IMG/VR virus record: IMGVR_UViG_3300044703_000050
Span: 1 to 57,725 of that record
Length of the DNA stretch: 57,725 nucleotides
DNA from: a virus
Lineage: Duplodnaviria > Caudoviricetes
Reading direction: 5' to 3' (one strand)
The position numbers and the translations under genes were made by a program. The notes beneath the pieces are model-generated. The model worked only from the letters and a program-made list of their open reading frames with translations. It was not told where the DNA came from and searched no databases. The stretch's first letter is position 1. Each line of letters starts with the position of its first letter. Below are positions 25,347 through 49,264 of this stretch, piece by piece.

Positions 25347-25528
25347 TGGCTGAAACCGTCGTCCAGCCCAACAACAAAGCGGTCGCCTTCCAGGGCAAGC
25401 CCTCGCGCGAGTCCCGGGCCCCCGGCATCAAGGCCAAGGCCAAGAAGCTCCACCGCCGCGGCATGATCTCGGCAAAAGAGCTCGACAAGCTCACAGGGCT
25501 CACCGAGCATGACCGAGAGCAAGGCTAA
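25346..25528 (+). CDS. Small basic hypothetical protein
   Basis: MAETVVQPNNK...RRGMISAKE; overlaps the terS start. Confidence 0.55.
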   Translation: MAETVVQPNNKAVAFQGKPSRESRAPGIKAKAKKLHRRGMISAKELDKLTGLTEHDREQG

Positions 25529-26120
25529 AGCGTTCCCGGCGCGCCATGCGCGTTTCGTCGCCGAGTACCTGATCGACTTCAACGGCGCCAAGGCCGCGGT
25601 GCGGGCGGGCTATTCGGCGCGGCGGGCGAAGCAGACGGCGTCGGAGCTTTTGGCGCGCGACGAGATCGCGGCGGCGATCGCCGAGGGCCAGCAGCAGCTC
25701 GCGGCGCGGGCCACGGTCACGGTGGACGAGGTGGTGGCGGCGCTCACGACCGTACTGCGCGCCAACGTCCTGGACTACATGCGGGTCGGGCCCGAGGGCG
25801 AACCAATCGCCGATTTCAGCGAGATGACGCGCGAGCAGGCCGCGGCGGTGTCGGAGGTCACGGTCGAGGACTTTGTCGACGGCCGCGGTGACGATGCCCG
25901 CGACGTCAAGCGGGTGCGCTTCAAGCTGCACGACAAGCTGTCGGCGGCCGACAAACTGATGCGCCACCTCGGTGGCTACGCGCCGGTCCGCATCGGCAAC
26001 GCGCCAGGCGAGACGTTTAAGACCAGTCAGGCGGCGCATGAATTTACCGACGCGGAGCTCGTCGCTATCGCCCTCGGCGGCCGCGGCGGAGCTGCTCCGG
26101 AGGAGACGGGCGCGCGATAG
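25509..26120 (+). CDS. terS: Terminase small subunit
   Basis: RFVAEYLIDFNGAKAAVRAGYS...KLHDKLSAADKLMRHLG. Confidence 0.92.
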   Translation: MTESKAKAFPARHARFVAEYLIDFNGAKAAVRAGYSARRAKQTASELLARDEIAAAIAEGQQQLAARATVTVDEVVAALTTVLRANVLDYMRVGPEGEPIADFSEMTREQAAAVSEVTVEDFVDGRGDDARDVKRVRFKLHDKLSAADKLMRHLGGYAPVRIGNAPGETFKTSQAAHEFTDAELVAIALGGRGGAAPEETGAR

Positions 26121-27600
26121 CCTGATCGGCTTCGCCAATTCGGTAGAGATCCCGGGCAAACCCGTTGCCGACGATGAGGATGCCTGGCTGTTCAAGCCGG
26201 TGGAGACCACGGTCGCCGATCACCACCGGCTGATCATGCAGCACGCAGAGACGATCGCCTCGACGCCGTACGGTCGCGGCATGTTCTTCCTGCCGCCGGG
26301 CTCGGCCAAGTCCACTTACGGCTCGGTGCTGTTGCCGGCCTACAACATGGGGCGCTTCCCCGGCAACCGCCTGATCCTGACCACGTACGGCTCCGACCTC
26401 TCGCGCAAGCACGGCCGCCGGGCCCGCCAGATCGTCCGCTCACCGGCCTATGGCGCGATCTTCAACACCGGCCTGTCGCCGGACTCGAGCGCCGCCGACG
26501 AGTGGGCGCTGACCAACGGCTCCGAATACATGGCCGGCGGGATCCTTTCGGGGATCACCGGCAACCGCGCCAACGGCATCATCATCGATGATCCGGTGAA
26601 AGGCCGCGACGAGGCGGAGTCGGACGTCGTGCGCAAGCGCACGCTCGAGGCCTACGAGGACGACATCAAGACGCGGCTGCTGCCGGGCGGCTGGATGCTG
26701 CTCATTCAGACGCGCTGGCACGAGAACGACCTCGCCGGCTCGATCCTGCCGGAGAGCTGGAAGGGCGAGAGCGGGCTCATCCGGTGCCGCGACGGCTTCG
26801 ACTGGCTGGTGCTGTCGATCCCGGCCAAGGCCGAACGCGCCGACGATCCGCTCGGCCGCAAGCCCGGCGAGTATCTCTGGCCGGAATGGTTCGACCGCAA
26901 GCACTGGTCGCAGTTCGAGAGCAACGCGCGGACCTGGTCGGCGCTTTACCAGCAGCGGCCGGCGCCGGAGAGCGGCAACTATTTCCGGGCCGAGTGGCTG
27001 CGGCCTTACACGGACGCCCCGGCACGCGCGACTCTCACCGTCTACGGCGCCTCTGATTACGCCGTCACCGAAAAGGGCGGCGACTACACCGTGCACATCG
27101 TGGTCGGGGTCGATCCGGACAACCGGATGTACCTCCTCGACCTCTGGCGCCGGCAGACGGCGTCGGACGAATGGGTCGAGGCCTGGTGCGACCTGGTGCT
27201 GAAATGGAACCCGCTCGGCTGGGCCGAGGAGAAGGGCCAGATCAAGGCCGGCGTCGGCCCGTTCCGCGACAGCCGCGCGCTCACACGCAAGGCCTATTGC
27301 GCGGTGACAGCGTTTCCGACGCGTGGCGACAAGGCGGTGCGCGCACAATCGATCCGCGGCCGCATGGCACAGCTCGGGCTCTACGTGCCGACGAGCGCGC
27401 CCTGGGCGGCCGACCTGAAGACCGAGCTGATGAGCTTCCCGAACGGGCGGCATGACGACCAGACCGACACGCTCGGGCTGATCGGGCAACTCCTAGACGT
27501 GTTGATGCCCGGACCGAAGCCGAAGACGGCCGAAACCAACAAGCGCAGCGACTACGGCCCGGCGCAACGGTCGGACGAGAACAGCCTGCTGACACTTTAA
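26038..27600 (+). CDS. terL: Terminase large subunit (start uncertain)
   Basis: PPGSAKSTY Walker A, GIIIDDPVKG Walker B, QTRWHENDL, ASDYA nuclease Asp, FPNGRHDDQTD. Confidence 0.95.
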   Translation: MNLPTRSSSLSPSAAAAELLRRRRARDSLIGFANSVEIPGKPVADDEDAWLFKPVETTVADHHRLIMQHAETIASTPYGRGMFFLPPGSAKSTYGSVLLPAYNMGRFPGNRLILTTYGSDLSRKHGRRARQIVRSPAYGAIFNTGLSPDSSAADEWALTNGSEYMAGGILSGITGNRANGIIIDDPVKGRDEAESDVVRKRTLEAYEDDIKTRLLPGGWMLLIQTRWHENDLAGSILPESWKGESGLIRCRDGFDWLVLSIPAKAERADDPLGRKPGEYLWPEWFDRKHWSQFESNARTWSALYQQRPAPESGNYFRAEWLRPYTDAPARATLTVYGASDYAVTEKGGDYTVHIVVGVDPDNRMYLLDLWRRQTASDEWVEAWCDLVLKWNPLGWAEEKGQIKAGVGPFRDSRALTRKAYCAVTAFPTRGDKAVRAQSIRGRMAQLGLYVPTSAPWAADLKTELMSFPNGRHDDQTDTLGLIGQLLDVLMPGPKPKTAETNKRSDYGPAQRSDENSLLTL

Positions 27601-27987: not shown

Positions 27988-29925
27988 ATGCAGCTCGAGG
28001 TCGCCGCGTCCGAAGGCCGCAGCGTCGCGCGCCGCAAAAGCAGCGCCGACGAGAACCGATCGCAGTTCCTCCCGGTCGAGACTCTGCGCCGCCAATACCT
28101 CGACTATCTCACCTGCAAGGTCGCCGAGATCGAGGAGGCGAAGGAGGCGCGGCGCTATTACCACGGCGCCCACTACACCCCCGACGAAATCCGCGTCCTG
28201 CGCGCGCGCCGGCAGCCGCCGGTGGTGTGGAATCGCATCGCCCGCAAAATCAACGGCATCGTCGGCGTGGTGCAGAAGCAGCGCCGCGACCCGAAAGCCT
28301 TCCCGACCAAGCCGAAGGGCGAGGCCGGCGCCGAGATCGCGACCCAGACCATCCGCACGGTGCTCGACGGCAACGACTGGGAGACCCGCGACGAGTTTTG
28401 CCTGCGCCAGGCGGCGACCGAGGGCATCGGCGGCATCGAGCTGCGTCTGGTCGCGGGCGACCAGGGCGACCCCGACATCGAAATGTGGGAGGTGTTCGGC
28501 GACGACTTCTTCTACCAGCCCACTTCCGTCCGCTTCGACTTTTCAGACGCCCGCTACAAAGGAATCGCCAAGTGGGTCGACGTCGACGAGGCGGTCGAGC
28601 TCTTTCCCGACCGGGAAGAACTGATCCGCGGGCTGATCGAGTCCGGCTCCGACCTCACCACCAACGCCGACCGCGAATACAAGTGGATCAACACCACCAC
28701 GAAGCGCGTGCGGCTGATCGAGCACTGGTATAAGCACCGCGGCGTGTGGTGTTGGGCCTTCTACATCTCCAATCAGCTGCTGGAGGAGGGTGTCTCCCCG
28801 TTCAAGGACGAGCGCCGGCGCACCATCGCGCGCTTCATCATGTTCCGCGCCGCGGTCGACCAGGACGGCGACACCTACGGCTTTGTGCGCAACTTCAAGG
28901 GCCCGCAGGACGAGCTCAATCAGAGCCGCTCGAAGAGCAATCATGTCGCCAATTCCCGCCGGCTGATCGCCGACAAGGGGGCGGTTGACGACGTCGAAAC
29001 CGCGCGGCGGGAATGGGCGCGGCCTGACGGCTACATCGAGAAGAATCCCGGCAAGGAGATCGCGCCGGATAACACTACCGCCGATCTCGCCGCGCAGCTG
29101 CAGCGCGCGCAGACCGCGGCCGACGAGATCGAGAACTTCGCCAATACCAACATCGCCAACATGACCGACGGCGCGGTCGGCAACCTGTCGGGCGTCGCCA
29201 TCAACCTCCTGACCCAGCCAGGCCTCGCCGAGCTCGGGCCTTTCATCAAGGCCTATCGCGGCTGGAAGCTGCGGGTCTATCGCGCGGTCTTCAATCTTGC
29301 CCAGCAGTATTGGACGTCGGAGCGCTGGGTGCGGGTGACCGACGACGAGGACGTCGCTCATTTCATCCAGATCAACGGGCTCGACCTCGACGACTACGGC
29401 CGGCCGGCGATGGTCAATTACCTCGGCGCCCTCGACGTCGACATCAAGCTCGACGAAGGCCCCGACGAAGTGACGCAAATGCAGGATACCTACGACGTGA
29501 TCAAAAATGATCCGGCGGTGCCTGCCCAGGTCAAGATCGCGGTGGCGCCGATCCAGGGCAGCGTCAAGAAGCGCATCCTCGCCATGCTGCAGCCGCCGGT
29601 CGATCCGGCGCAGGCGATCATGAAGCGGCTCGCGCTCGAAGGCGCCTCCGCAGAGAACGAGAGCGAGCGGGCCCGCGCCGAGGAACGCCGCGCGCGTGCG
29701 GTGAAGGATGCCGCCGGTGCGGCCGCGCTGGTCGTCAAGGCCGGGCTCAACGGCGCCGAGGCCTACAAGGCCTCGATCGAAGCCGGGCAGGGCGGCGACA
29801 ACGGGCCGGGCGCTATCCAAGGCTTGCCCGACCAGGCACCGGGGCCAGGCGGTGCGCCCACTGCAGCGCCGATGCCGATGATCGCTCCGCCGGCGCCGCA
29901 GTTCCCGTTACCGTTCGGACCGTAG
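27988..29925 (+). CDS. Portal protein (P22-like)
   Basis: 645 aa after terL; YYHGAHYT, RRQPPVVWNRI, GPQDELN, SGVAIN, DVDIKLDEGP. Confidence 0.92.
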   Translation: MQLEVAASEGRSVARRKSSADENRSQFLPVETLRRQYLDYLTCKVAEIEEAKEARRYYHGAHYTPDEIRVLRARRQPPVVWNRIARKINGIVGVVQKQRRDPKAFPTKPKGEAGAEIATQTIRTVLDGNDWETRDEFCLRQAATEGIGGIELRLVAGDQGDPDIEMWEVFGDDFFYQPTSVRFDFSDARYKGIAKWVDVDEAVELFPDREELIRGLIESGSDLTTNADREYKWINTTTKRVRLIEHWYKHRGVWCWAFYISNQLLEEGVSPFKDERRRTIARFIMFRAAVDQDGDTYGFVRNFKGPQDELNQSRSKSNHVANSRRLIADKGAVDDVETARREWARPDGYIEKNPGKEIAPDNTTADLAAQLQRAQTAADEIENFANTNIANMTDGAVGNLSGVAINLLTQPGLAELGPFIKAYRGWKLRVYRAVFNLAQQYWTSERWVRVTDDEDVAHFIQINGLDLDDYGRPAMVNYLGALDVDIKLDEGPDEVTQMQDTYDVIKNDPAVPAQVKIAVAPIQGSVKKRILAMLQPPVDPAQAIMKRLALEGASAENESERARAEERRARAVKDAAGAAALVVKAGLNGAEAYKASIEAGQGGDNGPGAIQGLPDQAPGPGGAPTAAPMPMIAPPAPQFPLPFGP

Positions 29926-29980
29926 GGAAAAACCCAAACAATGAAATCCAGTAGTGCGCTCCCCTGCGTTGGAGACTCCT

Positions 29981-30502
29981 ATGTCAAATGATCTCGGACC
30001 GGCCAACGCGCCTAATCAGCTTTCAATCTTAGCTGCTATCCAGGCGCTGTTGAGCAATATGACCATCGCCGCCGGCTCTGCCATCATCGGGAAGGTCGGG
30101 ATCGACCAGACCGCCGGACAGAACGAAGTTATTCCGAACGCATCCGCGAGAGCGGGCGGCGTGCCATCGACGGCGCGGTTTGCTTCGGCAGCGGCCTCGA
30201 CCAACGCCACGCTGGTCAAGGGCAGCGCCGGTCGCATTTATCAGGCCAGTGGCAAGAACAACGCTGCCTATGACGTGTTCCTCGTGCTGTACGACAGCGC
30301 AGCCAGCCCGCCCGTGCCGGGCACCACCACAATTCGCAAGAAGATCGTCTGCCCCGCCGGTCAAGCCTTCGTCTATGACTGGCCGTCCGGCCTCTCGTTC
30401 GCGACCGGCATTGGCTACGCCTTCACCAAGTTGGTGGCGGACGCCGACACGACGGTGCTGGTCGCAGCCGATATCACCGGCTTCAATCTGGACTACGCGT
30501 GA
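29981..30502 (+). CDS. Putative beta-sandwich virion/decoration protein
   Basis: SAASTNATLVKGSAGRIY-like segment, GLSFATGIGYAFT; GGAG RBS. Confidence 0.7.
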   Translation: MSNDLGPANAPNQLSILAAIQALLSNMTIAAGSAIIGKVGIDQTAGQNEVIPNASARAGGVPSTARFASAAASTNATLVKGSAGRIYQASGKNNAAYDVFLVLYDSAASPPVPGTTTIRKKIVCPAGQAFVYDWPSGLSFATGIGYAFTKLVADADTTVLVAADITGFNLDYA

Positions 30503-30918
30503 TGTCGGGGTTCTCCAGGCCACCCCTCCCGTCCGTCACTCAGACCGTGGCCGCCGGCAGCGCTGTAGCCCTCACCAACGGCACCGGGAAAAGTGTCGCC
30601 AGCATCACCCTCACGCCCGGCACCTGGCTCCTCTTCGGGGCCGTAGGGTTCATCTACGCGGCCAACACGAGCTCAACACGCCTCCTTACCTCGTTATCCG
30701 CAACGGACAACGGCATCGATACCACCCCGGGCTTCTGGTTCAACGAGTTCACGGCAGCCCTCGTGCCAGGAGCGGGAAACCACCAGCACCGCCCGGTCGG
30801 TCCCGTCGTGGTGACGGTGACGGTCAACACCCCGTACTACCTCATCGCCATGGCGGCGTTCACGGTCGATGTGCTTACCGCATGCGGCGAGATCACGGCC
30901 GTCCGCATCGCCCCATGA
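30499..30918 (+). CDS. Putative beta-sandwich virion protein (fibre-tip-like)
   Basis: VASITLTPGTWLL...GEITAVRI. Confidence 0.7.
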   Translation: MMSGFSRPPLPSVTQTVAAGSAVALTNGTGKSVASITLTPGTWLLFGAVGFIYAANTSSTRLLTSLSATDNGIDTTPGFWFNEFTAALVPGAGNHQHRPVGPVVVTVTVNTPYYLIAMAAFTVDVLTACGEITAVRIAP

Positions 30919-31194: not shown

Positions 31195-32316
31195 ATGGCT
31201 CAGAACGAGGACCAATTGCTGAAGGGTGCTATCGACGCAACGCAGAAAGAGATTTTTGCCGACGTGTTCGATAACGACGAAGCCGTCTTGGATGAAACCG
31301 GTGATCGTTCCATCGAAGAGATGGGCGATGGCTTGGAAGGTCAGGTCGAAGAGGATGAGGCGGGCGACGAGGCCGAGGACGCCGGGAAAGGCGTTGACGC
31401 CAAGGACGATGCCGAGACCAAAGACGATAAGGCCGCGGGTGACAAAGACCCGAACGACAAGACGGCGCGGGACGACAAGGGCAAGTTCACCACCAAGGAC
31501 GAGAAGGCCGAACCGGAGAAGGGGACCCAACCAGACCCCAAGGCCGGCAAGGATCATCGCGTACCGGTCGGTGAGCTGAAGAGCGAGCGCTCACAGCGCC
31601 AGGCGGCCGAGGAACGAGCGACAAAGGCCGAAGAACGCGCCGCGGCTGCAGAAGCCAAGGCGCAGGACGAGGTCGCCAAGCTCAACGCCAAGCTGGACGG
31701 TGTTCTCGCCGCACAGCGGCAGCCGCCACAGCCGGCCAAGACCGAAGAGGCCAAGACACCCGAACGCCCCGACATGTTCGCCGATCCGGAAGGATACGCG
31801 AAATGGGTCGAGGACCGGGCCAACGAACGGGTCGCTACGGTCGAGCGAAACATCTCCCAACGCTTTATTGAGCAGAGCTTTGCTCTCGCCCATGACGCGC
31901 ACAAGGAGGTCTTCGAGAAGGCCCATGCGGAGCTTACTTCCCTCAACCCGAAGAACCCCGCAGACGTCATCACGGTCCGCAACATCGCCAACGCGCCCAA
32001 TCCGGGCGCCGCGCTGATGAAGTGGCACCGCAATCGCGAGACCCTGCGCGAGGTCGGCCCCGATCCCGCCGCCTTCAAGCAGAAGCTCGCCGACGACACC
32101 CGTGCGGCCCTCATGAAAGACCCGGAATTCCGCAAGCAGCTCCTCGAGGACCTGCGCGCGGAGGCCACCGGGGGAGCCAACAGCGGCGATCCTGCTCGAA
32201 CCATCACGCGCCTGCCGAAATCCCTCAACGGCGCCGCCGGTAGCGGCTCCAACCAGGACGCCGTCTTCGACGGCTCGCAGCGCGCCATCTTCGACAACGT
32301 CTTCGCAGACCAGTAA
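31195..32316 (+). CDS. Capsid scaffolding protein
   Basis: Acidic N-terminus, RVPVGELKSER coiled coil, PDMFADPEGY; located between portal and capsid. Confidence 0.85.
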   Translation: MAQNEDQLLKGAIDATQKEIFADVFDNDEAVLDETGDRSIEEMGDGLEGQVEEDEAGDEAEDAGKGVDAKDDAETKDDKAAGDKDPNDKTARDDKGKFTTKDEKAEPEKGTQPDPKAGKDHRVPVGELKSERSQRQAAEERATKAEERAAAAEAKAQDEVAKLNAKLDGVLAAQRQPPQPAKTEEAKTPERPDMFADPEGYAKWVEDRANERVATVERNISQRFIEQSFALAHDAHKEVFEKAHAELTSLNPKNPADVITVRNIANAPNPGAALMKWHRNRETLREVGPDPAAFKQKLADDTRAALMKDPEFRKQLLEDLRAEATGGANSGDPARTITRLPKSLNGAAGSGSNQDAVFDGSQRAIFDNVFADQ

Positions 32317-33562: not shown

Positions 33563-33585
33563 GCCCTGAAGGCTCTGATCAAACG

Positions 33586-33614
33586 GCGCGGCGGGAATCC
33601 TCTCGCCGCGCTTT
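33586..33614 (+). terminator. Hairpin / weak terminator after the capsid gene
   Basis: GCGCGGCGGGA-ATCC-TCTCGCCGCGC-TTT. Confidence 0.55.
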
Positions 33615-33654
33615 CCCGCTTCAAATCCTGATCATCGGCCCAAGGAGGCCAACC

Positions 33655-34137
33655 ATGAAACGCATCCTCGCGGCTCTTGCCGCATTGTTCCTCGTCGGGA
33701 CGAGTGCCGCCTTGGCGATCTCGCCCCTCATCGGCAATGCCACGCCGGCGACCCGGCAGCTGCCGATGCAGCTGGTTCATACCTACCGCGCCACGGTCAA
33801 CTTCAACGATCCGACGATCTCGTCTGCGATCCAGTTCGGCTCGCTGCCGGCTGGCTCTTCCATCGTCGCCGTGCAAGTCGAGATCGTCACGGCGTTCAAC
33901 GCCGCCACCACCAACGTGCTGACCTTCGGCACCACCACCACGGCGACCGAGCTGGTCAACGCCGGCGACCTCAACGAGGCCGCGACCGGCGTGACCAGCG
34001 TCACGCGCGGGCTCGGCCAGTCGCTCACTGCCTCGGCCGATACTGGGCTCTACGCCAAGTACACGCAGACCGGCACGGCGGCGACGGCCGGCAAGGCCAT
34101 CGTCACCATCCAGTACATCCCCAACAACGATCAGTAA
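33655..34137 (+). CDS. Capsid cement/decoration-like protein with signal-peptide-like N-terminus
   Basis: GSLPAGSSIV...VTAFNAATTNVLTFG...ATAGKAIVTIQY; N-terminus MKRILAALAALFLVGTSAALA. Confidence 0.8.
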   Translation: MKRILAALAALFLVGTSAALAISPLIGNATPATRQLPMQLVHTYRATVNFNDPTISSAIQFGSLPAGSSIVAVQVEIVTAFNAATTNVLTFGTTTTATELVNAGDLNEAATGVTSVTRGLGQSLTASADTGLYAKYTQTGTAATAGKAIVTIQYIPNNDQ

Positions 34138-34199
34138 GGCGCCCCGCGCGCCTTCCCGCTGCTCGTCCTCAAATCCAGGCCCAAGGAGGGCCAATCAAC

Positions 34200-34775
34200 A
34201 TGCTGAAGAAACTTCTGGCGGCCGCGGCCGCGCTCGCCGTGACCGCCGCGATCGCCGCGGCGGCTACATTCGCGATCGACGGCGGGCAGCCGGTGCTGCC
34301 GGGCAATGCGGGCCCGACCGTATTCCACTCCGGCGGCGCCACTCCGGTCGCCGTTTCAAGCGGCACCGATGCGACCGCCGTCAACACCGAAACCTACATC
34401 GTCGAGGTGTTCGTGCCGGCGAACGCGACGCTCACCGGCGTGTCGGTCCTGCATCTGGCGACCTCGACCGGCAACGTGCAGTTCTCGCTCGCCGATTCCG
34501 CCGGCGTGCCGATCGCTGCGGCGGTTACGGCCTCGACCGCGGCCACCGGCTCGGCCGCCTACCAGAAGGTGCCGTTCGCGGTCGCGTATGCCGCCAAGGG
34601 CCCCGCGAAATACTTCATCCTGATGCAGAACAGCGGCAGCAACCATTACCGGGCGCACGCGCTCGGCAATTTCGGGGCGGCCAAGAAGACCGGCGAGACC
34701 TACGGCACGTTCACCACGGTGACGCCGCCGACCACGTTCACCGCCGATCTCGGCCCGATCGCCGACGTCTACTGA
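34200..34775 (+). CDS. Putative virion protein with signal-peptide-like N-terminus
   Basis: MLKKLLAAAAALAVTAAIAAAA followed by a beta-rich body; AAGGAGG RBS. Confidence 0.75.
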   Translation: MLKKLLAAAAALAVTAAIAAAATFAIDGGQPVLPGNAGPTVFHSGGATPVAVSSGTDATAVNTETYIVEVFVPANATLTGVSVLHLATSTGNVQFSLADSAGVPIAAAVTASTAATGSAAYQKVPFAVAYAAKGPAKYFILMQNSGSNHYRAHALGNFGAAKKTGETYGTFTTVTPPTTFTADLGPIADVY

Positions 34776-34793
34776 CCACCACACCAACCCCTG

Positions 34794-34828
34794 GAGCGGC
34801 GGCTGGCGACAATCCAGCCGCCGCTCTT
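34794..34828 (+). terminator. 13-bp GC-rich hairpin
   Basis: GAGCGGCGGCTGG-CGACAAT-CCAGCCGCCGCTC with only a short T tail. Confidence 0.5.
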
Positions 34829-34867
34829 CAGCGCCTGACCGGCGCCTTACATCAGAGGAATGACCCT

Positions 34868-35308
34868 ATGGCGAAGAAACCCGAGGCGGCCCTCAATCTC
34901 AAGCCCGGCGACGACGTCGAGAAACGTCCGCTCGTGACCTATGTGCCGCAGTCGGGCGATCCGGCCGAGGTGACCTGGAACAGCCACGTCTTCAAGGCCA
35001 ACATCCCGCGCACCGTCAACGTGCCGGGCATGGTCGAGCAGGCCCGCGGCAATCCCTGGTTCCGGGTCGGCGACGAGGAGAGGGCGCAGGCGTCGTCGGT
35101 GACGGACAGGCCGAAGACCGCCGAGGAATACCGCGCCTATGCGCTCGCCTGGATCATGGCGGCGCCAAGCTCGGCCGAGCTCGCCAAACGCTGGGACGAC
35201 GAGGCGGCGCTGCGTGCCGAGGTCGAGGCCGGCACCGACGACGAGGAATATCTCGCGCAGTTCTTCAACGTGAAGTTCGACCAACTGAAGAAGGTCGAGG
35301 CCGACTGA
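34868..35308 (+). CDS. Conserved hypothetical head-region protein
   Basis: VTWNSHVF...ARGNPWFRV; GAGGA RBS. Confidence 0.75.
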   Translation: MAKKPEAALNLKPGDDVEKRPLVTYVPQSGDPAEVTWNSHVFKANIPRTVNVPGMVEQARGNPWFRVGDEERAQASSVTDRPKTAEEYRAYALAWIMAAPSSAELAKRWDDEAALRAEVEAGTDDEEYLAQFFNVKFDQLKKVEAD

Positions 35309-35309
35309 T

Positions 35310-36263
35310 ATGGCCAAGACCCGCGCCGATCTGGCCAGCGATGCGCTGAGCAATCTCGGCATCGTCATCCTGGCGGACGGCGCACCCACCCGCACCCGCG
35401 CCGACTGGGTCAATGAGACCCTGTACCTCCTTGGGGTTATCCGGCAGACGGATACGTCGGCAGTGCGCACGCGTTCCGAGCTTGTCAACAACGTCGCCTT
35501 CATCCTCGGCCCGGGCGAGGTCGGACAGGCGCTCAATGCCGACGACTATGCGGCGATCGATATGCGCTTCGACACCGTCATCGGCGACCTCAACGCTCGT
35601 GCGATCGCGACCATCGGGAATGCCAACGCCATTCCGGGCGCCTGGTTCGACGCGCTATCCGCGATCGTCGCCAACGTCTGCAAGGAGAAATACGGCGTCA
35701 CCGGCGACGAGGCGACGAAGCTGCAGGCCGAGGCCGCGCTAGCCGAGGGCAAGCTCAAGACGCTGACCCGGACTGGGCTCGTCGATGAGGTCTTGCCCTC
35801 CATCGTCGGCGACCTCAACGCTCGCTCCATCGCCACCGTTGCCGACCTCGGCGCCATTCCGGGCGCCTGGTTACCCTCACTTGCCGACATCGCGGCCGAG
35901 TTCGTCAAGGGCCGCTTTGGCGTGTCGCCGGAACGCTCGCTGGAACTGACCGCGCGCGCCCAGGCGGCCGAGCGCAAGCTCAAGGCCATGACGCGCGCCT
36001 ACCTTGTCGACCGCAACATCGACGCAATCCTTGCCGATCTCGCGGCGCGCGACATCGTCTATCTGGTCGATCAGAGCGACATTCCCGACGAGTGGTATTT
36101 TCATCTCGCCGCCATCGTGGCCGATCGCTGCAAGGGTAAGTTCGAGCTCGATCCCTTGACGCTGCAGCGGGTGTCGACCGACGGCGCGCAGGCCCTGATG
36201 GATCTGCGCGAATTGACCCGCGGACGGCCGAGCTATCTGCCGCAACAGACGAGCTATTTCTGA
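35310..36263 (+). CDS. Head-tail adaptor (P22 gp4 position), internally triplicated
   Basis: Directly before the gp10-like gene; (K/R)TRxxL/W..AL..LG three times, then DL.AR.I...IP..W three times; terminal GRPSY...YF. Confidence 0.75.
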   Translation: MAKTRADLASDALSNLGIVILADGAPTRTRADWVNETLYLLGVIRQTDTSAVRTRSELVNNVAFILGPGEVGQALNADDYAAIDMRFDTVIGDLNARAIATIGNANAIPGAWFDALSAIVANVCKEKYGVTGDEATKLQAEAALAEGKLKTLTRTGLVDEVLPSIVGDLNARSIATVADLGAIPGAWLPSLADIAAEFVKGRFGVSPERSLELTARAQAAERKLKAMTRAYLVDRNIDAILADLAARDIVYLVDQSDIPDEWYFHLAAIVADRCKGKFELDPLTLQRVSTDGAQALMDLRELTRGRPSYLPQQTSYF

Positions 36264-37690
36264 TGCCGACGGTCGATATCCCGTTCCCGCTGTCGTCGGC
36301 GCCCGGCCGCAGTCCGGGTGAGGGTGCCGGCCGGCTGATCAACTGTTATGCCGAGGCGCTGGGGCCAGAGGCGATCTCGCCGGCGGTGCGGCGGCGGGTG
36401 GCCGGGCTGACCGCGTTTTCGTCGCCCGGCGGGGCGGTTGCGGCCTGCCGCGGCTTCCTCGAGGTCAATGGCCTGCTCTATGCCGTGATCGGGCGCACCA
36501 TGTACGCCATCGCGTCCGATGGCGGCTTCACCATCGTCGGCGTCGTCGCGGGCACGAAAAAAGTGTTCATGGCGCGCAACAACAAGAAGCCCAACCCCGA
36601 CAAGGTGCTGGTGACCGAAAACGGCGCCTTTAGCTTCGATACCACGATCGTCGCGTTCGCCGACCCGAATCTGCCGGTTCCGTGCGGGGTCTGCTTCCAG
36701 GATGGCTTTTTCTTCTTCCCGGTCGGCGACGGCCGCTGCTTTGCCACCGGTGTCAACGACGTCACGGTCAACGCGCTGACATTCTCGACCGCGGAATCGA
36801 AACCCGATGGTCTCGTCACCGCGATTCCGTTCAACAACCAGCTCCTGCTGTTCGGGTCCTACTCGCTGGAATTCTGGTCGAACACGTCCAACGCATTCCC
36901 GGCTTTCCCATACACGCGCTCGGCGGCAGTCTCGCGTGGTCTCGTCGCGTCCACCGCGATCGCTGGTCATCAGGACGGCTTCGGCGGTTCGGCGCTGATC
37001 TGGGTGGCCGACGACAACACAGTGGTGAAATTGGACGGCTACACGCCGGTGAAAATCTCTGCGCCCGATCTCGATAACCTGATCGAGCTCGTCGCCGACA
37101 AGACGACGCTCGAGGCCTGCGTCTACATCGCCGGTGGCCATCCGAAATGGGTGCTCTCGTCGAATGACTGGACTTGGGAGTTTGATCTCAACACACAAAA
37201 GTGGAACGAGCGGGCGAGCTATGGCTTGGCGCGCTGGCGGGCGTCGCAGGCGGTTTACGCCTTCGGCAAATGGCTCGCTGGCGACACTCAGACCGGTTCC
37301 ATATTCCAGATCGACGCTGCCCAGCAAAAAGAGGGCACCAACGCGCTGATCTATCGTCTTGAGAGCGGACCGGCGCAGAACTTCCCTAATCGCACGCGGG
37401 TGGCGCGCGCGGATTTCGACCTGGCGAGCGGCGTCGGCGACGCAACTGGCGCGACGGTGCCGGAAACCGATCCGGTCGCCGAGGTGAGCTGGTCGGACGA
37501 CGGCGGCGCCACCTGGTCGCTGCCAGTGCAGCGGCCGCTCGGCCAGCAGGGTCGCTACCGTCAGCGCATTACCGTCACCGGCAGCGGCAGCTCCGGTCCG
37601 CGCGGCCGGCGCTGGCGGATCGTCATCAGTGATCCGGCCTATGCCGCGATCACGCTTGGACGCCAGTCCACCGAATTGCGGGATCACTGA
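36263..37690 (+). CDS. Packaged-DNA stabilisation / tail hub protein (P22 gp10-like)
   Basis: RLINCYAE, STAESKPD, SLEFW, VSWSDDGGATWS, ISDP. Confidence 0.88.
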   Translation: MPTVDIPFPLSSAPGRSPGEGAGRLINCYAEALGPEAISPAVRRRVAGLTAFSSPGGAVAACRGFLEVNGLLYAVIGRTMYAIASDGGFTIVGVVAGTKKVFMARNNKKPNPDKVLVTENGAFSFDTTIVAFADPNLPVPCGVCFQDGFFFFPVGDGRCFATGVNDVTVNALTFSTAESKPDGLVTAIPFNNQLLLFGSYSLEFWSNTSNAFPAFPYTRSAAVSRGLVASTAIAGHQDGFGGSALIWVADDNTVVKLDGYTPVKISAPDLDNLIELVADKTTLEACVYIAGGHPKWVLSSNDWTWEFDLNTQKWNERASYGLARWRASQAVYAFGKWLAGDTQTGSIFQIDAAQQKEGTNALIYRLESGPAQNFPNRTRVARADFDLASGVGDATGATVPETDPVAEVSWSDDGGATWSLPVQRPLGQQGRYRQRITVTGSGSSGPRGRRWRIVISDPAYAAITLGRQSTELRDH

Positions 37691-43117: not shown

Positions 43118-44185
43118 ATGAAACTTCTGTCCCGCGCCCTCTTCGGCGCGCTCGCGCTCCTGTGCGCGCCGCTGCCCGCCTCTGCCACCGGCATCCTGCC
43201 GCTGTCGGGCCAACAGCAGTTCGACAATGCGACCGCGGGCTTCCTCAACGCCGGGTGTATGTGGATCTTCGCCACCGGCACGACGACGCCGCGCACGGTC
43301 TATACTGACTTCGCGCTGACCGTCCCGCATCCATCGCCGATCGTCCTCAATTCGGTCGGTCGCGTGCCGCCGATCTACGGCGCCGACGGTGCGGTGCGGG
43401 TGCGGGTGCGCTCAAAGAATACCGACGGCAGCGCCGGCTGCCTCGTCAGCGGGGTCCTGCAGTTCGACCAGGACAACGTCGCGCTCGTCACCGCGGCCGC
43501 CAGCGGCAGCTCTTTGCCGATCCCCGACGCCACCCAGATCTGGGGCACCGGCGACATCAAGGTCCGCTACGACGACCAGCCGGTCGAAGGTTATGTCCGG
43601 CTCAACGGCCGCACCATCGGGTCGGCGACGTCGGGCGCGGCCGAGCGCGCCAATGCCGACGCCGAGGCGCTGTTCAAGTTCCTGTGGGGTTTTTCCAATG
43701 TCTCGGTGGTGACCGGCAAAGGCGCGAGCGCCGCCGCCGACTGGGCGGCGAACAAGCAGCTTACGCTCCCCGACATGGCGGGACGCCTGCTCGGTGCGCG
43801 CGATGATCTCGGCAACGGCGCCGCCGGGCGCATCACCGCCGCCACGGTGACAGGGCCGACCGCCGTCGGCGCCGCCGGCGGCACCGAGAAGGGCACGATT
43901 GCGCAGGCCAACCTGCCGAACGTCAACTTCCCGGTGTCCGGCATCACGCTTTCGGATACCCGCACCTGGGGCTGGTCGAAGCCCGGGTCCAACGCCGGCG
44001 TCACCGGCGCCACCGACGCCATCCTGCAGCCGAGCGGCACCAACACGACGATCACCGACACCGTGACGGTGACCGGCGGCGAGCTGGCGGTCGCGACGCA
44101 AGGCACCGCCGCCTCCGGCGGCGCCGGCACGGCGTTCAACACCATCGCGCCCGTGATGCTGTTCACCACCTACATCAAGCTGTGA
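43118..44185 (+). CDS. Tail fibre / tail-collar protein with signal-peptide-like N-terminus
   Basis: Head-binding-like N domain (FATGTTTP...PIVLNSVGR), collar motif GDIK...GYVRLNG...LPDMAGR, C-terminal YIKL. Confidence 0.8.
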   Translation: MKLLSRALFGALALLCAPLPASATGILPLSGQQQFDNATAGFLNAGCMWIFATGTTTPRTVYTDFALTVPHPSPIVLNSVGRVPPIYGADGAVRVRVRSKNTDGSAGCLVSGVLQFDQDNVALVTAAASGSSLPIPDATQIWGTGDIKVRYDDQPVEGYVRLNGRTIGSATSGAAERANADAEALFKFLWGFSNVSVVTGKGASAAADWAANKQLTLPDMAGRLLGARDDLGNGAAGRITAATVTGPTAVGAAGGTEKGTIAQANLPNVNFPVSGITLSDTRTWGWSKPGSNAGVTGATDAILQPSGTNTTITDTVTVTGGELAVATQGTAASGGAGTAFNTIAPVMLFTTYIKL

Positions 44186-44594: not shown

Positions 44595-45997
44595 AATTAC
44601 AAATGACGCCGCGTTTCCCCGCAATCGTGCAGGCCGCCAACGGCGACAAGGTGGTGCGCGCGAACGGCGCCTACACGTTCGGGCCGGCTTACGACCAACT
44701 CACCGCGCTCGGCAGCCTGACCGATCTGCCGAACACGGTGTTTCGTTCCTACAATCTAGCGACCGGGCTCTATCGCAGCCTCACGGCGCAGCAGCTCGCT
44801 TCGGCAATCGGGTTGCCAATCACCTCGGGCGTGCGATCCCGCCTCCTCGCCGATATCAACTTCTACGTCCGCCCTGACGGCAGCGACGCCAATACCGGCC
44901 TCGCCAACACATCTGGGGGCGCCTTTCGGACAATCCAAAAGGCGATTGATACTGCGTTCGCATCACTCGACTGGAGCGGGTTCAACGTCTACGTCAATGT
45001 AGCTGCCGGGACCTTTACGGACCCCGTGATCGTCACCGGCAAGGCCGTCGGCCAATACGGCGGCGGCACGCTTATGATCATCGGTGATCAGACCACGCCT
45101 GCAAATTGCATCGTCAGCACGACGGCAGCAGATGCGTTTACAATTACCAAGGGCGCCGCGGTCACAATCGCAGGGTTCAAGGTCCAGACAGCGATATCCG
45201 GCAATTGCGTCAAGTGCCTTTTCAAAAGCCGGCTGACGCTCGGCGCGATGGAATATGGAGCGTGCGCCGGTTACCACATCCAGACGGCTTACCAGTCATT
45301 CACGGAGACAATTGCATCATATAAGATATCAGGCGCCGCCGCCGCCCACTTTTACACCGTGCTGAGTTCTGTTCTTGAGGTGGTTGGGATCACCATCACG
45401 CTGACTGGGACGCCTTCGTTTTCGACCGCGTTTTTGGTCGGGGCGGTGAACTCATACTCTCATCTCGTTAGCGTGACGTTCAGCGGGTCAGCGACGGGCC
45501 AGCGCTTCTACATGTACATGAACGCCGTCTACAGCGACGGAAGTACACACGGATACGACTACCTTCCCGGTAATGCCGATGGTGTGACGTTTGGCGGGGC
45601 GGTATACAACAACGATTACGAATACGTCGGCTGGCAGTCGTGGTCTCCGACCATTGCCACGGTCAGCGGAACGGCCGCAACCGCTTCCGGCCAATATAAA
45701 ACACATGGTCGAGATTTTGAGTTTTCAATCACGGCAGTGGTGGGTTCAATTGGAGCATCGCCCAGCATTGCAATACCAATGCCTACCGTGAACAATTCTT
45801 ACAATGCTGCGGGTATTGGAAGCCCTTCGGGGAACAACGCGTTTAGAGCGATGGACATCACATCTGCTGATGTCTTGATGACCGCGTTTGCCCTCGAGAG
45901 CAATCCGTTCATCTTTCTCAAGCCACTCGCGGGCGCATCTTTTGCAACGCATGCCTACGTGATCAGCGGGAAGATGCCGCTCAACGCCTATCCATGA
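44591..45997 (+). CDS. Tail fibre / tailspike (receptor-binding) protein
   Basis: FYVRPDGSDANTGL...AFRTIQKAID start of a beta-helix; visibly lower-GC 3' half. Confidence 0.8.
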   Translation: MKLQMTPRFPAIVQAANGDKVVRANGAYTFGPAYDQLTALGSLTDLPNTVFRSYNLATGLYRSLTAQQLASAIGLPITSGVRSRLLADINFYVRPDGSDANTGLANTSGGAFRTIQKAIDTAFASLDWSGFNVYVNVAAGTFTDPVIVTGKAVGQYGGGTLMIIGDQTTPANCIVSTTAADAFTITKGAAVTIAGFKVQTAISGNCVKCLFKSRLTLGAMEYGACAGYHIQTAYQSFTETIASYKISGAAAAHFYTVLSSVLEVVGITITLTGTPSFSTAFLVGAVNSYSHLVSVTFSGSATGQRFYMYMNAVYSDGSTHGYDYLPGNADGVTFGGAVYNNDYEYVGWQSWSPTIATVSGTAATASGQYKTHGRDFEFSITAVVGSIGASPSIAIPMPTVNNSYNAAGIGSPSGNNAFRAMDITSADVLMTAFALESNPFIFLKPLAGASFATHAYVISGKMPLNAYP

Positions 45998-46422
45998 TGC
46001 GCGCGCCTGTCCGGCAAGCGGGCCTCGTGACGCGCGCACCAATCTTCGCCGCCATCGCGGCGCTATCCACCATTGCGGCCGCGAGCGCGCGCGACGCCGG
46101 CCAGTGGAGCGACCAACCGCCCGCCGTGCGCGAATGGTTCCGTGGGCTGATGCAGCCGGACCAACCACATGTATCCTGCTGCGGCGAATCCGACGCCTAT
46201 GAGGCGGACAGCTTCGAGGTCGAGGGCGACCACTACGTCGCGATCATCACCGACGGCAGCGGCGATCCCGAGCACGGCAAGCGCGAGATCCCGAACGGCA
46301 CGCGAATTACGGTGCCAAACCACAAGATGAAATGGGACGCCGGCAATCCGACCGGGCACGGCGTGATCTTCATCGGGCCGCAGGGCCAGGTCTTCTGCTT
46401 CGTCACTCCAGGCGGCGTCTGA
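45994..46422 (+). CDS. Secreted Cys-containing phage protein
   Basis: Signal peptide; SCCGESD; NPTGHGVIF; VFCFVTPGG. Confidence 0.75.
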   Translation: MMRAPVRQAGLVTRAPIFAAIAALSTIAAASARDAGQWSDQPPAVREWFRGLMQPDQPHVSCCGESDAYEADSFEVEGDHYVAIITDGSGDPEHGKREIPNGTRITVPNHKMKWDAGNPTGHGVIFIGPQGQVFCFVTPGGV

Positions 46423-47301: not shown

Positions 47302-48167
47302 CCATGGCGCTGGTCCGCAGCCGCGGCGGCTACTATCTCGATTTTGCGATTGCGCCGACGCTGGTCGCGGTCGCGGCTGCGACCGAGCAGCTTAGCCGCG
47401 GCATAGGCCTTGCGTGGCTTGCCGCCATGCTGGCGGGAGCGCTCGCGTGGACGCTCGCCGAATATCTCATCCACCGCGTTTTCCTGCACCGCCTGTGCCG
47501 TGCGCTGCACGCCGAGCATCATCGCGTGCCGGCGGCCTATGTCGGACCATCGAGCTTCTTCACCGTGGCCGTGGTCGGCGTGCTGCTGGTCCTCCTGGTG
47601 GCGCTCATGGGGCAGACCGTCGGTGGCGGCGCCTGGGCCGGGATCCTGCTCGGCTATTTCTCCTACATCGTCATGCACGACGCGCTGCACCGCCGGCGTA
47701 TTCCGCGCGGCCATTGGCTCCGACCCGCCTTCGACCGCCACATGCTGCATCATCGCGGCATCGAGCGGAATTTCGGGGTGACGACGGCGCTCTGGGACCG
47801 CATGTTCGGTACCGCCGGCACGGTCGCGCCGGCGGAAGTGGAGCCCGGCGAGATGGACTTTCCCTTCACCACGGACGGCTGCTCGGGCGGCATGACGGCG
47901 CTGTGGCGCGTCGTCTACCGCCGTGATCCGCCCTGGAACGACCTGTGCGTCGAGCACGACAAGGCCTACTGGGCCGGCGGCTCGGTTGCCGATCGGAGAC
48001 AAGCGGACCGCGTCCTGATGGCCGGCGTCACGCTCAATGGTCATCCGGTCTTTGCCTTCCTCATGTGGTGTGCCGTGCGTATCGGCGGGCATCCCTTGCT
48101 GCCGTTGCCCTGGCGCTGGAGCTACGGCTGGACCTATCCGAAAAATTACGCCTCGCACCAAGGGTGA
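47298..48167 (+). CDS. Fatty-acid hydroxylase / sterol desaturase fused to a DGCS...HD (PLA2-like) domain
   Basis: EYLIHRVFLH, HAEHH, HDALH, HMLHH, NFGVTTALWDRMFGT; then FTTDGCSGG...CVEHDKAYWAGG. Confidence 0.8.
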   Translation: MTMALVRSRGGYYLDFAIAPTLVAVAAATEQLSRGIGLAWLAAMLAGALAWTLAEYLIHRVFLHRLCRALHAEHHRVPAAYVGPSSFFTVAVVGVLLVLLVALMGQTVGGGAWAGILLGYFSYIVMHDALHRRRIPRGHWLRPAFDRHMLHHRGIERNFGVTTALWDRMFGTAGTVAPAEVEPGEMDFPFTTDGCSGGMTALWRVVYRRDPPWNDLCVEHDKAYWAGGSVADRRQADRVLMAGVTLNGHPVFAFLMWCAVRIGGHPLLPLPWRWSYGWTYPKNYASHQG

Positions 48168-48171
48168 GCTG

Positions 48172-48417
48172 ATGAACAAGCGCATTGATGGGCCCGTCAT
48201 CATCTCGGTGATCGTGGTGACCGGGTTTTTCGCCATTCTGGTGCTCTGGCTCGTCACCAAGGCCTCCTCGGTACCGCCGAGTGAAGGGCTCTCCATCATG
48301 CTCGGTGCCATGGCGTCGGCGTTCACCACCGTGGTCGGCTACTGGATGGGCTCGTCGGCCGGCTCGAAGAACAAGGACGCGGCGATCGCGGCGATGGTCG
48401 AGACCAAGGCGCCATGA
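48172..48417 (+). CDS. Holin-like two-TM protein
   Basis: Two hydrophobic helices; VVGYWMGSSAGSKNKD. Confidence 0.75.
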   Translation: MNKRIDGPVIISVIVVTGFFAILVLWLVTKASSVPPSEGLSIMLGAMASAFTTVVGYWMGSSAGSKNKDAAIAAMVETKAP

Positions 48418-48974
48418 TCGCGCTCCTGACCACGCTCGGCCTCGGCGCGCTGGCGCCGCTCCTGGCCGCCGCCGGCGGCTGGCTGACCGTGATCGGCGGC
48501 CCGGTGGCCGGCGTCGCCGGGCTGCTCTCACGCCGGGTGAGCGGCCCGACCCTCAAGCTCATCCTGGTCGTGGTCGCGGTCCTCGCCGTCATCATCGCGG
48601 TGGTGGGGTTCACGGCGCACTACGAACACCTCAAGGACAAGGCCGCCGACTTCCTGGTGCTGCAGCCGAAGATCGCCGCGCTCGAGCGCGATCTCGGCTG
48701 CGATGGCCGGGACGAGAACGAGCGCGAGCTGTTCACCTGCATCCCGGCGCGCGACCGCGATGCCGCGGAGGCAAAAGCTGCGGCGCTGCGCAAGCTGCAG
48801 GGGGACATGGCGCTGGCGCTGGAATTCGAGCGGCGGCGCGCCGACCAGAACGCTGCCGAGCTCGCCGATGCCAACGCGGCGATCGAGCGCTCGAGCGCTG
48901 CCGACGACGGACCGCTGCCGAAGGTGATGCGCGACAACTGGGCGCGCGAGCGGGCGCGTCGGGGGCTGAAATGA
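48414..48974 (+). CDS. i-spanin (Rz-like)
   Basis: N-terminal TM segments plus coiled coil; lysis-cassette position. Confidence 0.65.
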   Translation: MIALLTTLGLGALAPLLAAAGGWLTVIGGPVAGVAGLLSRRVSGPTLKLILVVVAVLAVIIAVVGFTAHYEHLKDKAADFLVLQPKIAALERDLGCDGRDENERELFTCIPARDRDAAEAKAAALRKLQGDMALALEFERRRADQNAAELADANAAIERSSAADDGPLPKVMRDNWARERARRGLK

Positions 48975-49264
48975 TCCGCACCATGGTGGCGATCGCGCTC
49001 ATGTCCGTTCTCGCCGGCTGCGCCTTGGCGTCGAAGCCGGCGCCGATCGGCGTCTCGATCGACGGCCCGAAATTCCCGCGCTCGCAGTTCGACTGCGGTA
49101 GCCGCCCGCTGCCGCCGGATCCCGCGACCGCCACCGGCAAGACCGCGGCGCTCCATGAAAACCGGCTCGGCAGCTGGGGTGAGGGCTGCCAGGGCAGGCT
49201 GCAGAGCACCGGATTGGCGCTCGAGGCGGCCGGACAGCTGATCGACGGAGGCAAGGTGCCATGA
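48971..49264 (+). CDS. o-spanin (Rz1-like lipoprotein)
   Basis: LAGC lipobox, Pro-rich, two further Cys. Confidence 0.7.
   Translation: MIRTMVAIALMSVLAGCALASKPAPIGVSIDGPKFPRSQFDCGSRPLPPDPATATGKTAALHENRLGSWGEGCQGRLQSTGLALEAAGQLIDGGKVP

Follow-up and report, generated by a model that had tools for sequence, protein, structure and literature searches.

Why should a protein that appears to sit on the outside of a tailed-phage capsid be made with a secretion signal? Tailed-phage assembly is taught as a purely cytoplasmic process, and the question is raised by the two genes that follow the major capsid gene in IMGVR_UViG_3300044703_000050, a virus record (Duplodnaviria; Caudoviricetes) that we analyzed over its whole length of 57,725 nucleotides (nt), hereafter the window. 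We call these genes A and B, and we call C a fibre-like gene farther downstream, whose product also carries a leader. A sequence-only reading of the window had proposed that A and B are decoration proteins that may be exported or membrane-tethered and added to the virion at or after lysis. Judging from the leaders and their conservation, it is probable that A, B and C are all exported through Sec. That these outer parts are then stored in the periplasm and attach to finished particles once the inner membrane opens, around lysis, is the reading that we prefer, and we hold it tentatively, at a little less than even chances.

A signal-type leader on a cement-type protein

Both genes start as the sequence-only reading had described, with a basic, hydrophobic, AxA-type N-terminus. 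In gene A, MKRILAALAALFLVGTSAALA precedes the predicted cut site and the residues ISPL, and the leader divides into a positively charged n-region (MKR), a hydrophobic h-region (ILAALAALFLVGTSA) and small residues at positions −3 and −1 (ALA↓I, the arrow marking the predicted cut). In gene B, MLKKLLAAAAALAVTAAIAAA is followed by the cut site and ATF (MLKK, then LLAAAAALAVTAAI, then AAA↓A), the site AAA↓ATF having been set by alignment with relatives that have ALA↓AT. Signal peptides were called with a crude heuristic of our own, applied to every possible start in the window, together with conservation. The scores of A (5.18) and B (5.08) were exceeded by just two membrane proteins of the lysis cassette (5.26 and 5.83), and C, a protein of the virion module encoded at 43118, scored 4.58. 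On inspection of the sequences, neither A nor B has an RR (twin-arginine) motif or a cysteine after the cut site, and a Tat or lipoprotein signal is ruled out for both. Heuristic and conservation together support the assignment of the two leaders as Sec signals of the signal peptidase I type. The portal, scaffold, capsid and connector proteins have no leaders, which are confined to parts that would sit on the outside of the finished particle.

Starts downstream of the hydrophobic segments, one of the outcomes that the sequence-only reading had named as its own undoing, are not what we found. A strong ribosome-binding site, AAGGAGG, lies 6 nt before the ATG of A and 10 nt before the ATG of B; no ATG, GTG or TTG occurs in gene A between the hydrophobic stretch and M38; and initiation at M38 would remove R34, which is conserved in the family. 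The list of open reading frames (ORFs) also gives the frame of A in a longer, GTG-started version, from 33517.

The AlphaFold model of gene A (predicted local distance difference test, pLDDT, 85) shows a poorly ordered N-terminus followed by a beta-sandwich. Its best match among solved structures is the cement protein of phage Pam1 (7eel_H, Foldseek E 1.6e-5, TMt 0.66), followed by those of KHP30 (7dn2_1, E 4.6e-5) and GP4 (8h89_J, E 1.5e-4), so that all three significant matches are cements. The gene is separated from the capsid gene by 92 nt; in Pam1, the capsid gene gp5 is likewise directly followed by the cement gene gp6. Among 53 genome loci and 80 viral loci with a relative of A, tblastn places a capsid gene just upstream of it in 28 and 58, respectively, and the loci without such a match probably have capsid proteins too distant for tblastn. 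Fold and gene position therefore support the prediction that A is a cement-type protein, in agreement with the decoration role first proposed for it. A is present in every related locus. The conservation of its columns is correlated between leader-bearing and leaderless rows (Spearman 0.66 over 131 columns), and 17 of the 21 columns most conserved in the leaderless rows are also conserved in the leader-bearing ones, including R34 in the N-terminal arm. The same capsid type (381-389 amino acids, aa) accompanies both leader-bearing and leaderless forms of A (L006, L127 and L176 for the latter; L numbers designate sampled loci).

Searches found 862 relatives of A at E <= 0.001 when word-indexed and 1,433 cluster representatives in an exhaustive profile search. 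Neither A nor B had a tblastn match in 50,697 phage records (cultured phages), a profile search of the PDB sequences gave no relevant match for either family, and B has no significant sequence similarity to the Pam1 cement. No curated family fits A. Its one PHROG match, phrog_20969 ('Rz-like spanin', E 2.7e-5), was rejected as a label: the model is an all-beta sandwich, not an N-terminal anchor with a periplasmic coiled coil, and spanin-like genes are found separately at 48414-49264. We also rejected the possibility that A and B are paralogues (BLASTP E > 6, hhalign probability 0.04%).

Most relatives of A are about 140 aa long and start directly at the N-terminal arm (e.g., MATNTAP..ARQDPRQV). 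The leader is present in 28-29 of 120 relatives among the matches listed, in 2 of 53 genome loci and in 16 of 80 viral loci. It is also found in 17 of the best 150 of the 1,433 cluster representatives, about 89% of those 150 being without it (the 25 rows of at least 150 aa were read; in the shorter rows, which begin at profile positions 1-30, a leader would not fit). Each of the 18 leader-bearing loci has A next to the capsid gene and a capsid protein 60-71% identical to that of the window; loci whose capsid protein is 20-31% identical are all leaderless. Four leaderless loci occur within the lineage (L006 and L139, whose sequences look identical, L127 and L176). We built a FastTree phylogeny from 230 non-identical rows of the mature part of A, an alignment with few columns that leaves many forks unresolved; all 45 leader-bearing rows fall inside one 64-row set with support 98. 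Parsimony requires five changes of the leader on this tree, of which the well-supported branches force one, and none of 500 label shuffles was as clustered. Since most relatives are without it, the leader appears to be a lineage-specific addition marking one clade of A. The comparison with homologues proposed as a check in the sequence-only reading thus places the leader in a minority of the family.

The letters of the 45 leaders vary widely, and their design does not: in every one the n-region carries a net positive charge, 15-28 residues in a row are uncharged, and there is a small-x-small site, whose −1 position is A in 42 leaders and whose −3 position is A, V or S without exception (in the P0005-P0012 group, automatic placement was off and the site S-L-A↓L was assigned by eye). 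In related leader-bearing forms, AxA↓L(N/Q)VDQ.R..P.R aligns with the first residues of a nested leaderless group that begins MQPLDPNRTFPAR, and the mature end of the window's own protein, ISPLIGNATPATRQ, aligns with the same N-terminal arm. Because the predicted cut aligns with the start of the leaderless relatives, cleavage would recreate the usual N-terminus of the family. In the Pam1 cement, the N-terminal loop runs under the neighbouring trimer subunit and crosses or contacts the E-loop of the capsid protein, as described in the GP4 paper (PMC9698820). Given a loop in this position, an uncleaved hydrophobic leader or an extra helix would fit poorly.

Gene B, protein C and the cysteine pattern

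The best solved match of B is 9jwb_Z, from the capsid of cyanophage A4 (E 7e-5, template modelling score, TM, 0.55, identity 13%), followed by the carbohydrate-binding modules CBM32 and CBM6 (E 0.02-0.06). Between the predicted cut site and the domain lie about 18 residues, modelled at pLDDT 56-58. Among predicted viral structures (BFVD), B matches leaderless 169-aa phage proteins that are 49% identical to it and a 202-aa protein of Anabaena phage A-4L. Its match to DUF4082 (PF13313) reaches 20.0 bits, under the gathering cut-off of 28.4. The relatives share a conserved C-terminal domain of about 150 aa, carried on many different N-termini: a leader alone, a leader with a short fibre-like repeat, a leader with a 120-aa domain, a leaderless fibre-like part, or nothing beyond the bare protein of about 170 aa. 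About 75 of 120 relatives among the matches listed carry signal-type leaders (64 by a stricter rule, plus 11 by eye). Some B relatives are located after a capsid gene (L056, L085), fused to a tail fibre beside the endolysin gene (L086), or in tail modules (L088, L094, L101). A metagenome scan with B gave five loci, and no pair of A and B was seen in L191, L194 and L195, some of which are too short; the B domain forms the end of a fibre-like protein of 364 aa in L191, and in L194 it occurs as a leaderless protein of 172 aa, encoded upstream of terminase.

Leaderless B-domain forms of about 170 aa lie upstream of terminase in several otherwise different phage contigs: terminase directly follows the B-domain gene in at least five sampled contigs (L059, L062, L068, L078, L194) and lies within about 1.3 kilobases (kb) of it in L061, L071 and L105, a surprising location for part of a capsid or fibre. 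In the lineage of this phage, the junction where the cement gene meets the conserved gene that follows it is a hot spot for insertions. In L139:1222-4036 it holds a 2.8-kb block with low GC content at third codon positions (GC3) that encodes a P-loop protein, the same insert beginning in L006:3983-4625, and further inserts occupy L114:4616-5020, L141:1796-2041 and L159:1219-1575.

Protein C repeats the pattern seen for A in a third, unrelated family. In the window, MKLLSRALFGALALLCAPLPASA precedes the predicted cut site and TGILPLSG. In this family, the leaderless relatives start, with MAGSISLSLSQQFD, exactly at the position of the site AxA↓G(T/L)IPLS, and 52-57 of 120 relatives among the matches listed have the leader.

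Exported, disulfide-forming proteins favour even numbers of cysteines, and the mature parts of the three families can be compared in this respect. Counting even numbers (2 or more) versus odd ones, and ignoring the shared ancestry of the relatives, we obtained 10 versus 0 with leader and 2 versus 14 without for A, 59 versus 3 with leader and 17 versus 22 without for B, and 32 versus 16 with leader and 13 versus 28 without for C. The leader-bearing forms of all three families thus seem to favour even cysteine counts, as exported proteins do. The mature part of C in the window has two cysteines.

Where the proteins, if exported, might act

If the preferred reading is true, then A would be a capsid cement with the trimeric beta-sandwich of the Pam1, KHP30 and GP4 type, B an outer capsid accessory with a sugar-binding-type fold, and both, as well as the fibre-like C, would be made as Sec pre-proteins. 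The three genes would be transcribed with the late head operon. Their products would pass unfolded through Sec, lose the leader to signal peptidase I, fold and accumulate in the periplasm, while DNA-filled capsids are assembled in the cytoplasm without them. With the inner membrane opened by the holin to let the leaderless endolysin through, the contents of both compartments would mix and the mature proteins, their N-termini now like those of leaderless relatives, would bind the outside of the finished particles. Outer cements of the lambda gpD type attach to capsids only after these have expanded and filled, and may be supplied later, so attachment at a late stage is plausible. The window encodes an endolysin candidate without N-terminal membrane or signal segment as well as holin-like and spanin-like genes, so opening of the membrane would be part of phage exit; these roles are taken from sequence features, and a family search gave no match for the holin-like and spanin-like genes (48172-49264). 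From what was observed (fold, gene position, single copy, leaders, cysteine parity) we infer export, cleavage, and the timing and place of attachment. We prefer this reading because leaders are found on outer parts only, because A is the sole cement gene, located in the cement slot and under cement-like constraint, and because of the lysis genes.

Several results weigh against it. The sequence of A is not significantly similar to that of the Pam1 cement (BLASTP E 0.67, hhalign probability 1.2%), and its kinship therefore rests on fold and gene position. Within the same band of capsid identity, A has diverged relative to the capsid protein by a median ratio of 1.43 in leader-bearing pairs versus 1.22 in leaderless ones, the pairs being non-independent. 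The cysteine counts are not corrected for ancestry, as said above, and the window's own A and B have no cysteines (0 each), so the parity argument covers the families, not these two proteins. By our own reasoning, attachment within a short interval around lysis, while the proteins are diluted into the medium, would also be kinetically demanding. Further points concern B. In predicted viral structures its fold is also found at the tips of collagen-repeat fibres and in minor tail proteins of actinophages. B is absent from the related loci that we fetched, where A directly precedes the homologue of 34868-35308, and elsewhere its junction holds unrelated small ORFs (81-134 aa) or the 2.8-kb low-GC3 P-loop block. 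Since it is absent from related loci and other inserts occupy the same junction, B looks like a later insertion at a variable site, and its assignment to the capsid is weaker than that of A. The decoration role proposed for B in the sequence-only reading is thus only partly borne out: by modelled fold B resembles an auxiliary cement, and it resembles fibre tips as well, and its absence from close relatives speaks against such a role. Finally, L056:2770-9621, an unrelated viral contig with an HK97-type capsid gene and a leaderless Bbp16-type cement, has after this cement eight consecutive leader-bearing genes, one with a B domain and several with cysteine pairs, which look more like secreted cargo than like virion parts.

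The strongest alternative is that the proteins are exported and leave the virion altogether, as accessory envelope proteins derived from virion modules whose place of action would be the periplasm or the cell surface, where they might bind cell-envelope glycans, mask receptors or exclude other phages, late in infection or from the prophage. Well-known examples of exported prophage proteins are Bor, Lom, Cor and T5 Llp. The variable junction of B, its sugar-binding fold shared with fibre tips, the frequency of leaders among its relatives on several N-terminal architectures and the leader-bearing series of L056 would all be expected under this explanation, as would the strong hairpins that flank the pair of A and B, an arrangement often seen with morons. 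Presence or absence at a variable junction, the mark of a moron, is found for B and not for A, and the explanation is stronger for B, which lies at an insertion hot spot. For A, it implies that the capsid of this lineage does without cement, but A is the sole cement-type gene in a record rated complete, occupies the slot beside the capsid gene in 18 of 18 leader-bearing loci and retains the conserved columns of its family, down to the arginine of the N-terminal arm, while leaderless orthologues serve the same capsid type. The GC3 of A (0.89) and B (0.90), computed from the ATG starts with leaders included, also matches that of the phage, and no sigma-70-like promoter was found on the + strand between 31000 and 36500, a weak point given that alphaproteobacterial and phage promoters may differ. 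Departure from the virion is therefore a possibility to be taken seriously, if a rather doubtful one.

A second alternative keeps the leader on the protein, as an uncleaved anchor or a segment retained in the cytoplasm that would hold the protein at the inner membrane or postpone its binding until a later release, much as signal-anchor-release endolysins do. These Sec-dependent enzymes are an established phage precedent (PMC3765740); some relatives of A have uncharged runs of up to 28 residues (L141, L153, L166), and in the P0005-P0012 subgroup the SLA↓L site comes after a long polar c-region. We consider an anchor improbable, given the small-x-small motif at the right distance in all 45 rows, the coincidence of this site with the start of the leaderless relatives, and the burial of the Pam1-type N-terminal loop at the capsid surface (PMC9698820, as above). 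Finally, a start-codon artefact or chance composition, with the real proteins starting downstream, is very improbable indeed: high-GC, alanine-rich frames do readily give runs of Ala, Leu and Val, and B has an in-frame GTG at codon 32, but the two ribosome-binding sites, the lack of a usable start before M38 in A, the GC3 of both ORFs and the leader frame, which stays open and keeps signal-type features across all 45 divergent relatives of A as well as dozens of those of B and C, all argue against it.

Returning to attachment around lysis, in its most complete form the proposal is one of two-compartment assembly in the tailed phages of this soil alphaproteobacterial group, with a core built in the cytoplasm and a Sec-exported cement, sugar-binding accessory and fibre, disulfide-bonded in many relatives, fitted when the holin breaches the membrane; as a complete account, we regard this as possible but on the doubtful side. 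If outer parts are routinely exported first, then particles inside unlysed cells would be incomplete and lysis would double as the final assembly step, virion proteins could fold in the periplasm and form disulfide bonds there, and annotators could no longer take a signal peptide as grounds for leaving a protein out of the virion. If instead the proteins have left the virion, they would form a natural series from structural modules to secreted envelope proteins, with the leader added exactly at the old N-terminus. In either case, recurrence in three unrelated protein families provides built-in replicates.

Genomic setting and known systems

The features discussed here are collected in Table 1. 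The record is rated 100% complete and has a single A, a single B and a single C. It also encodes fibre and tail proteins, a lysis block, a repressor-like gene and a serine recombinase, and with its P22-type portal and connector, this gene content identifies it as a temperate, short-tailed, P22-like phage. The closest capsid proteins from cultured phages are those of Phage CBW1004C-Prop1 and Pseudanabaena phage Pam1, each 31% identical, and prophage-like relatives were found in assemblies of Pseudolabrys, Xanthobacteraceae and other Hyphomicrobiales.

Table 1. Positions of the leader-bearing genes, their flanking elements and other landmarks in the window
Feature	Position	Strand	Support
Small and large terminase	25509-27600
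P22-type portal	27988-29925		PF16510, E 1.5e-95
Scaffold-position gene	31195-32316
Major capsid protein, 381 aa	32417-33562	+	PF13252 Phage_capsid_3, E 3e-37; phrog_334, E 1e-61
12-bp GC-rich hairpin after the capsid gene, then TTTCCCGCTTC	33585-33612	+	Fold of 33563-33654
Upstream cassette, copy 1 (TTCCCGCT, TCAAATCC, GGCCCAAGGAGG, including ribosome-binding site)	33613-33648	+
Gene A, 160 aa, ATG start	33655-34137	+
Gene A signal-peptide-like leader, residues 1-21, MKRILAALAALFLVGTSAALA	33655-33717	+	Heuristic, conservation; low-confidence N-terminal helix in model
Gene A mature part, residues 22-160 and stop: N-terminal arm, beta-sandwich cement-type domain	33718-34137	+	AlphaFold model
Weak 5-bp hairpin after gene A	34138-34152	+	Fold of 34138-34199
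Upstream cassette, copy 2 (same three blocks)	34153-34189	+
Gene B, 191 aa	34200-34775	+
Gene B signal-peptide-like leader, residues 1-21	34200-34262	+	Heuristic; helix over residues 2-21 in model
Gene B mature part and stop: short linker, sugar-binding-module-like beta-sandwich	34263-34775	+	Model, pLDDT 90
13-bp GC-rich hairpin after gene B	34794-34826	+	Fold of 34776-34867
P22 gp10-like connector	36263-37690		phrog_578
Gene C, 355 aa, fibre-like, leader-bearing	43118-44185	+	phrog_8763 'tail protein', E 7e-34
Endolysin candidate without N-terminal membrane or signal segment	46450-47301	+	PG_binding_1, E 1e-14; endolysin PHROGs
Holin-like gene	48172-48417	+	Translation and heuristic only
Inner-membrane spanin-like gene	48414-48974	+	Translation and heuristic only
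Lipoprotein spanin-like gene, LAGC lipobox	48971-49264	+	Translation and heuristic only

The sequence-only reading had also pointed to a shared 5' leader in front of A and B. Its three blocks are indeed present before both genes: TTCCCGCT at 33613-33620 and 34153-34160, TCAAATCC at 33621-33628 and 34169-34176, and GGCCCAAGGAGG at 33637-33648 and 34178-34189, so that the second copy extends one base beyond the end first given for it (34189, not 34188). The exact 12-mer GGCCCAAGGAGG occurs just twice in the 57,725 bases, TCAAATCC occurs three times in the window versus 1.2 expected, and nowhere else in the window do the three blocks occur together. A composite pattern of TTCCCGCT and TCAAATCC had no match in 100 shuffles; it needs a gap of at least one base and thus reports the B copy alone, the two blocks abutting in the A copy. 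In relatives, the region upstream of the cement gene has the same architecture, with the capsid stop codon, a GC-rich hairpin, a T/C-rich stretch, GGCCnAGGAGGCCA and the ATG. The hairpin, the T/C-rich stretch and GGCCnAGGAGGCCA also precede the leaderless cement gene of L127. The shared 5' leader is thus most simply read as a cassette inherited with the intergenic region, apparently duplicated before B and bearing no particular link to export. B would either have carried a copy of this cassette of the cement gene along on arrival or have gained one, and would be expressed like A. In both copies (33637-33650 and 34178-34191), and conserved in relatives, the ribosome-binding site lies between two GGCC tetramers (GGCC-CAAGGA-GGCC), which could form a small hairpin with the Shine-Dalgarno sequence in its loop.

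Of the three intergenic folds, those after the capsid gene (33563-33654, −38.7 kcal/mol, z −3.07) and after gene B (34776-34867, −42 kcal/mol, z −5.8) were each matched by 0 of 200 shuffles, and the one after gene A (34138-34199, −19.7 kcal/mol, z −0.71) was no better than shuffles. Hairpins equivalent to the first are found at the same place in related loci, and it would act as a terminator or as a stabiliser of the mRNA.

The lysis block is accompanied by two further genes. Just before the endolysin candidate, 45994-46422 encodes a 142-aa protein with a signal-type N-terminus (..IFAAIAALSTIAAA↓SARD), a CC pair and no family match. Inside the block, between the endolysin and holin-like genes, 47304-48167 encodes a membrane protein of the fatty-acid hydroxylase family (PF04116, E 2.5e-20). 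Between portal and scaffold (29954-30918) lie two small genes, one of 139 aa that resembles a tail-fibre C-terminus (phrog_11393, E 5.6e-8) and one of 182 aa that, over 87 residues, is 33% identical to the C-terminal part of a leader-bearing L056 protein. The record starts and ends (positions 1-80 and 57646-57725) in the same 12-nt tandem repeat, GAGCTGGCCCCn. A circularity test found no exact terminal repeat, and the record probably reflects an assembly break inside a repeat-rich, possibly collagen-like, gene of a circular or permuted genome.

Among known systems, the closest to A are the cements of cyanophage Pam1 (gp6, 7EEL chain H), Helicobacter phage KHP30 (7DN2) and Ralstonia phage GP4 (gp1, 8H89), a type that forms trimers at the threefold and quasi-threefold axes of the capsid. 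A shares with them the beta-sandwich (Foldseek E 1.6e-5 to 1.5e-4), an Ig-like/jellyroll fold of about 125-155 residues. The likeness extends to the size of its leaderless relatives (about 140 aa), to the extended N-terminal arm ahead of the domain and, for Pam1, to a gene directly after that of a capsid protein about 31% identical. A differs from all three in having no significant sequence similarity to them, kinship being judged here from fold and position, and from the Pam1 cement in adding a 21-residue signal-type leader, for which the 140-residue Pam1 chain has no room. The counterpart of B is gp25 of cyanophage A4, an auxiliary cement that forms a trimer at the threefold axes and combines a carbohydrate-binding module with an N-terminal anchor, as set out in PMC12002296; we take 9jwb_Z to be this protein, from the paper's description of its fold. 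B has the same order of a short N-terminal stretch and a sugar-binding-type sandwich (9JWB), but differs in its low identity (13%), its signal-type leader, the roughly 18 residues from cut to domain, a fold that is common at fibre tips, and its lack of conservation in close relatives of its own phage.

Late addition and use of Sec each have their own precedents. Lambda gpD differs from A in fold, is cytoplasmic and has no leader; a description of this protein is given in PMC12002296 and PMC9698820. Sec-dependent phage endolysins are late proteins of tailed phages that use the host Sec system and act as lysis begins (PMC3765740, PMC7143992). They are enzymes of the lysis pathway and not virion parts. 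Bor, Lom, Cor and T5 Llp are phage-encoded, bear signal or lipoprotein leaders and have their genes within or beside structural genes. In contrast to A, they show no homology to a cement or fibre of the phage that encodes them and do not replace the sole copy of such a gene. In a literature search judged by titles and abstract openings, supplements and subscription journals excluded, we found no report of a Sec signal on a cement or decoration protein of a tailed phage. Cement proteins and Sec signals are each ordinary; what is new is their combination in three unrelated virion families, with the predicted cut at the old N-terminus, and, if the periplasmic step is confirmed, this would represent a new assembly route.

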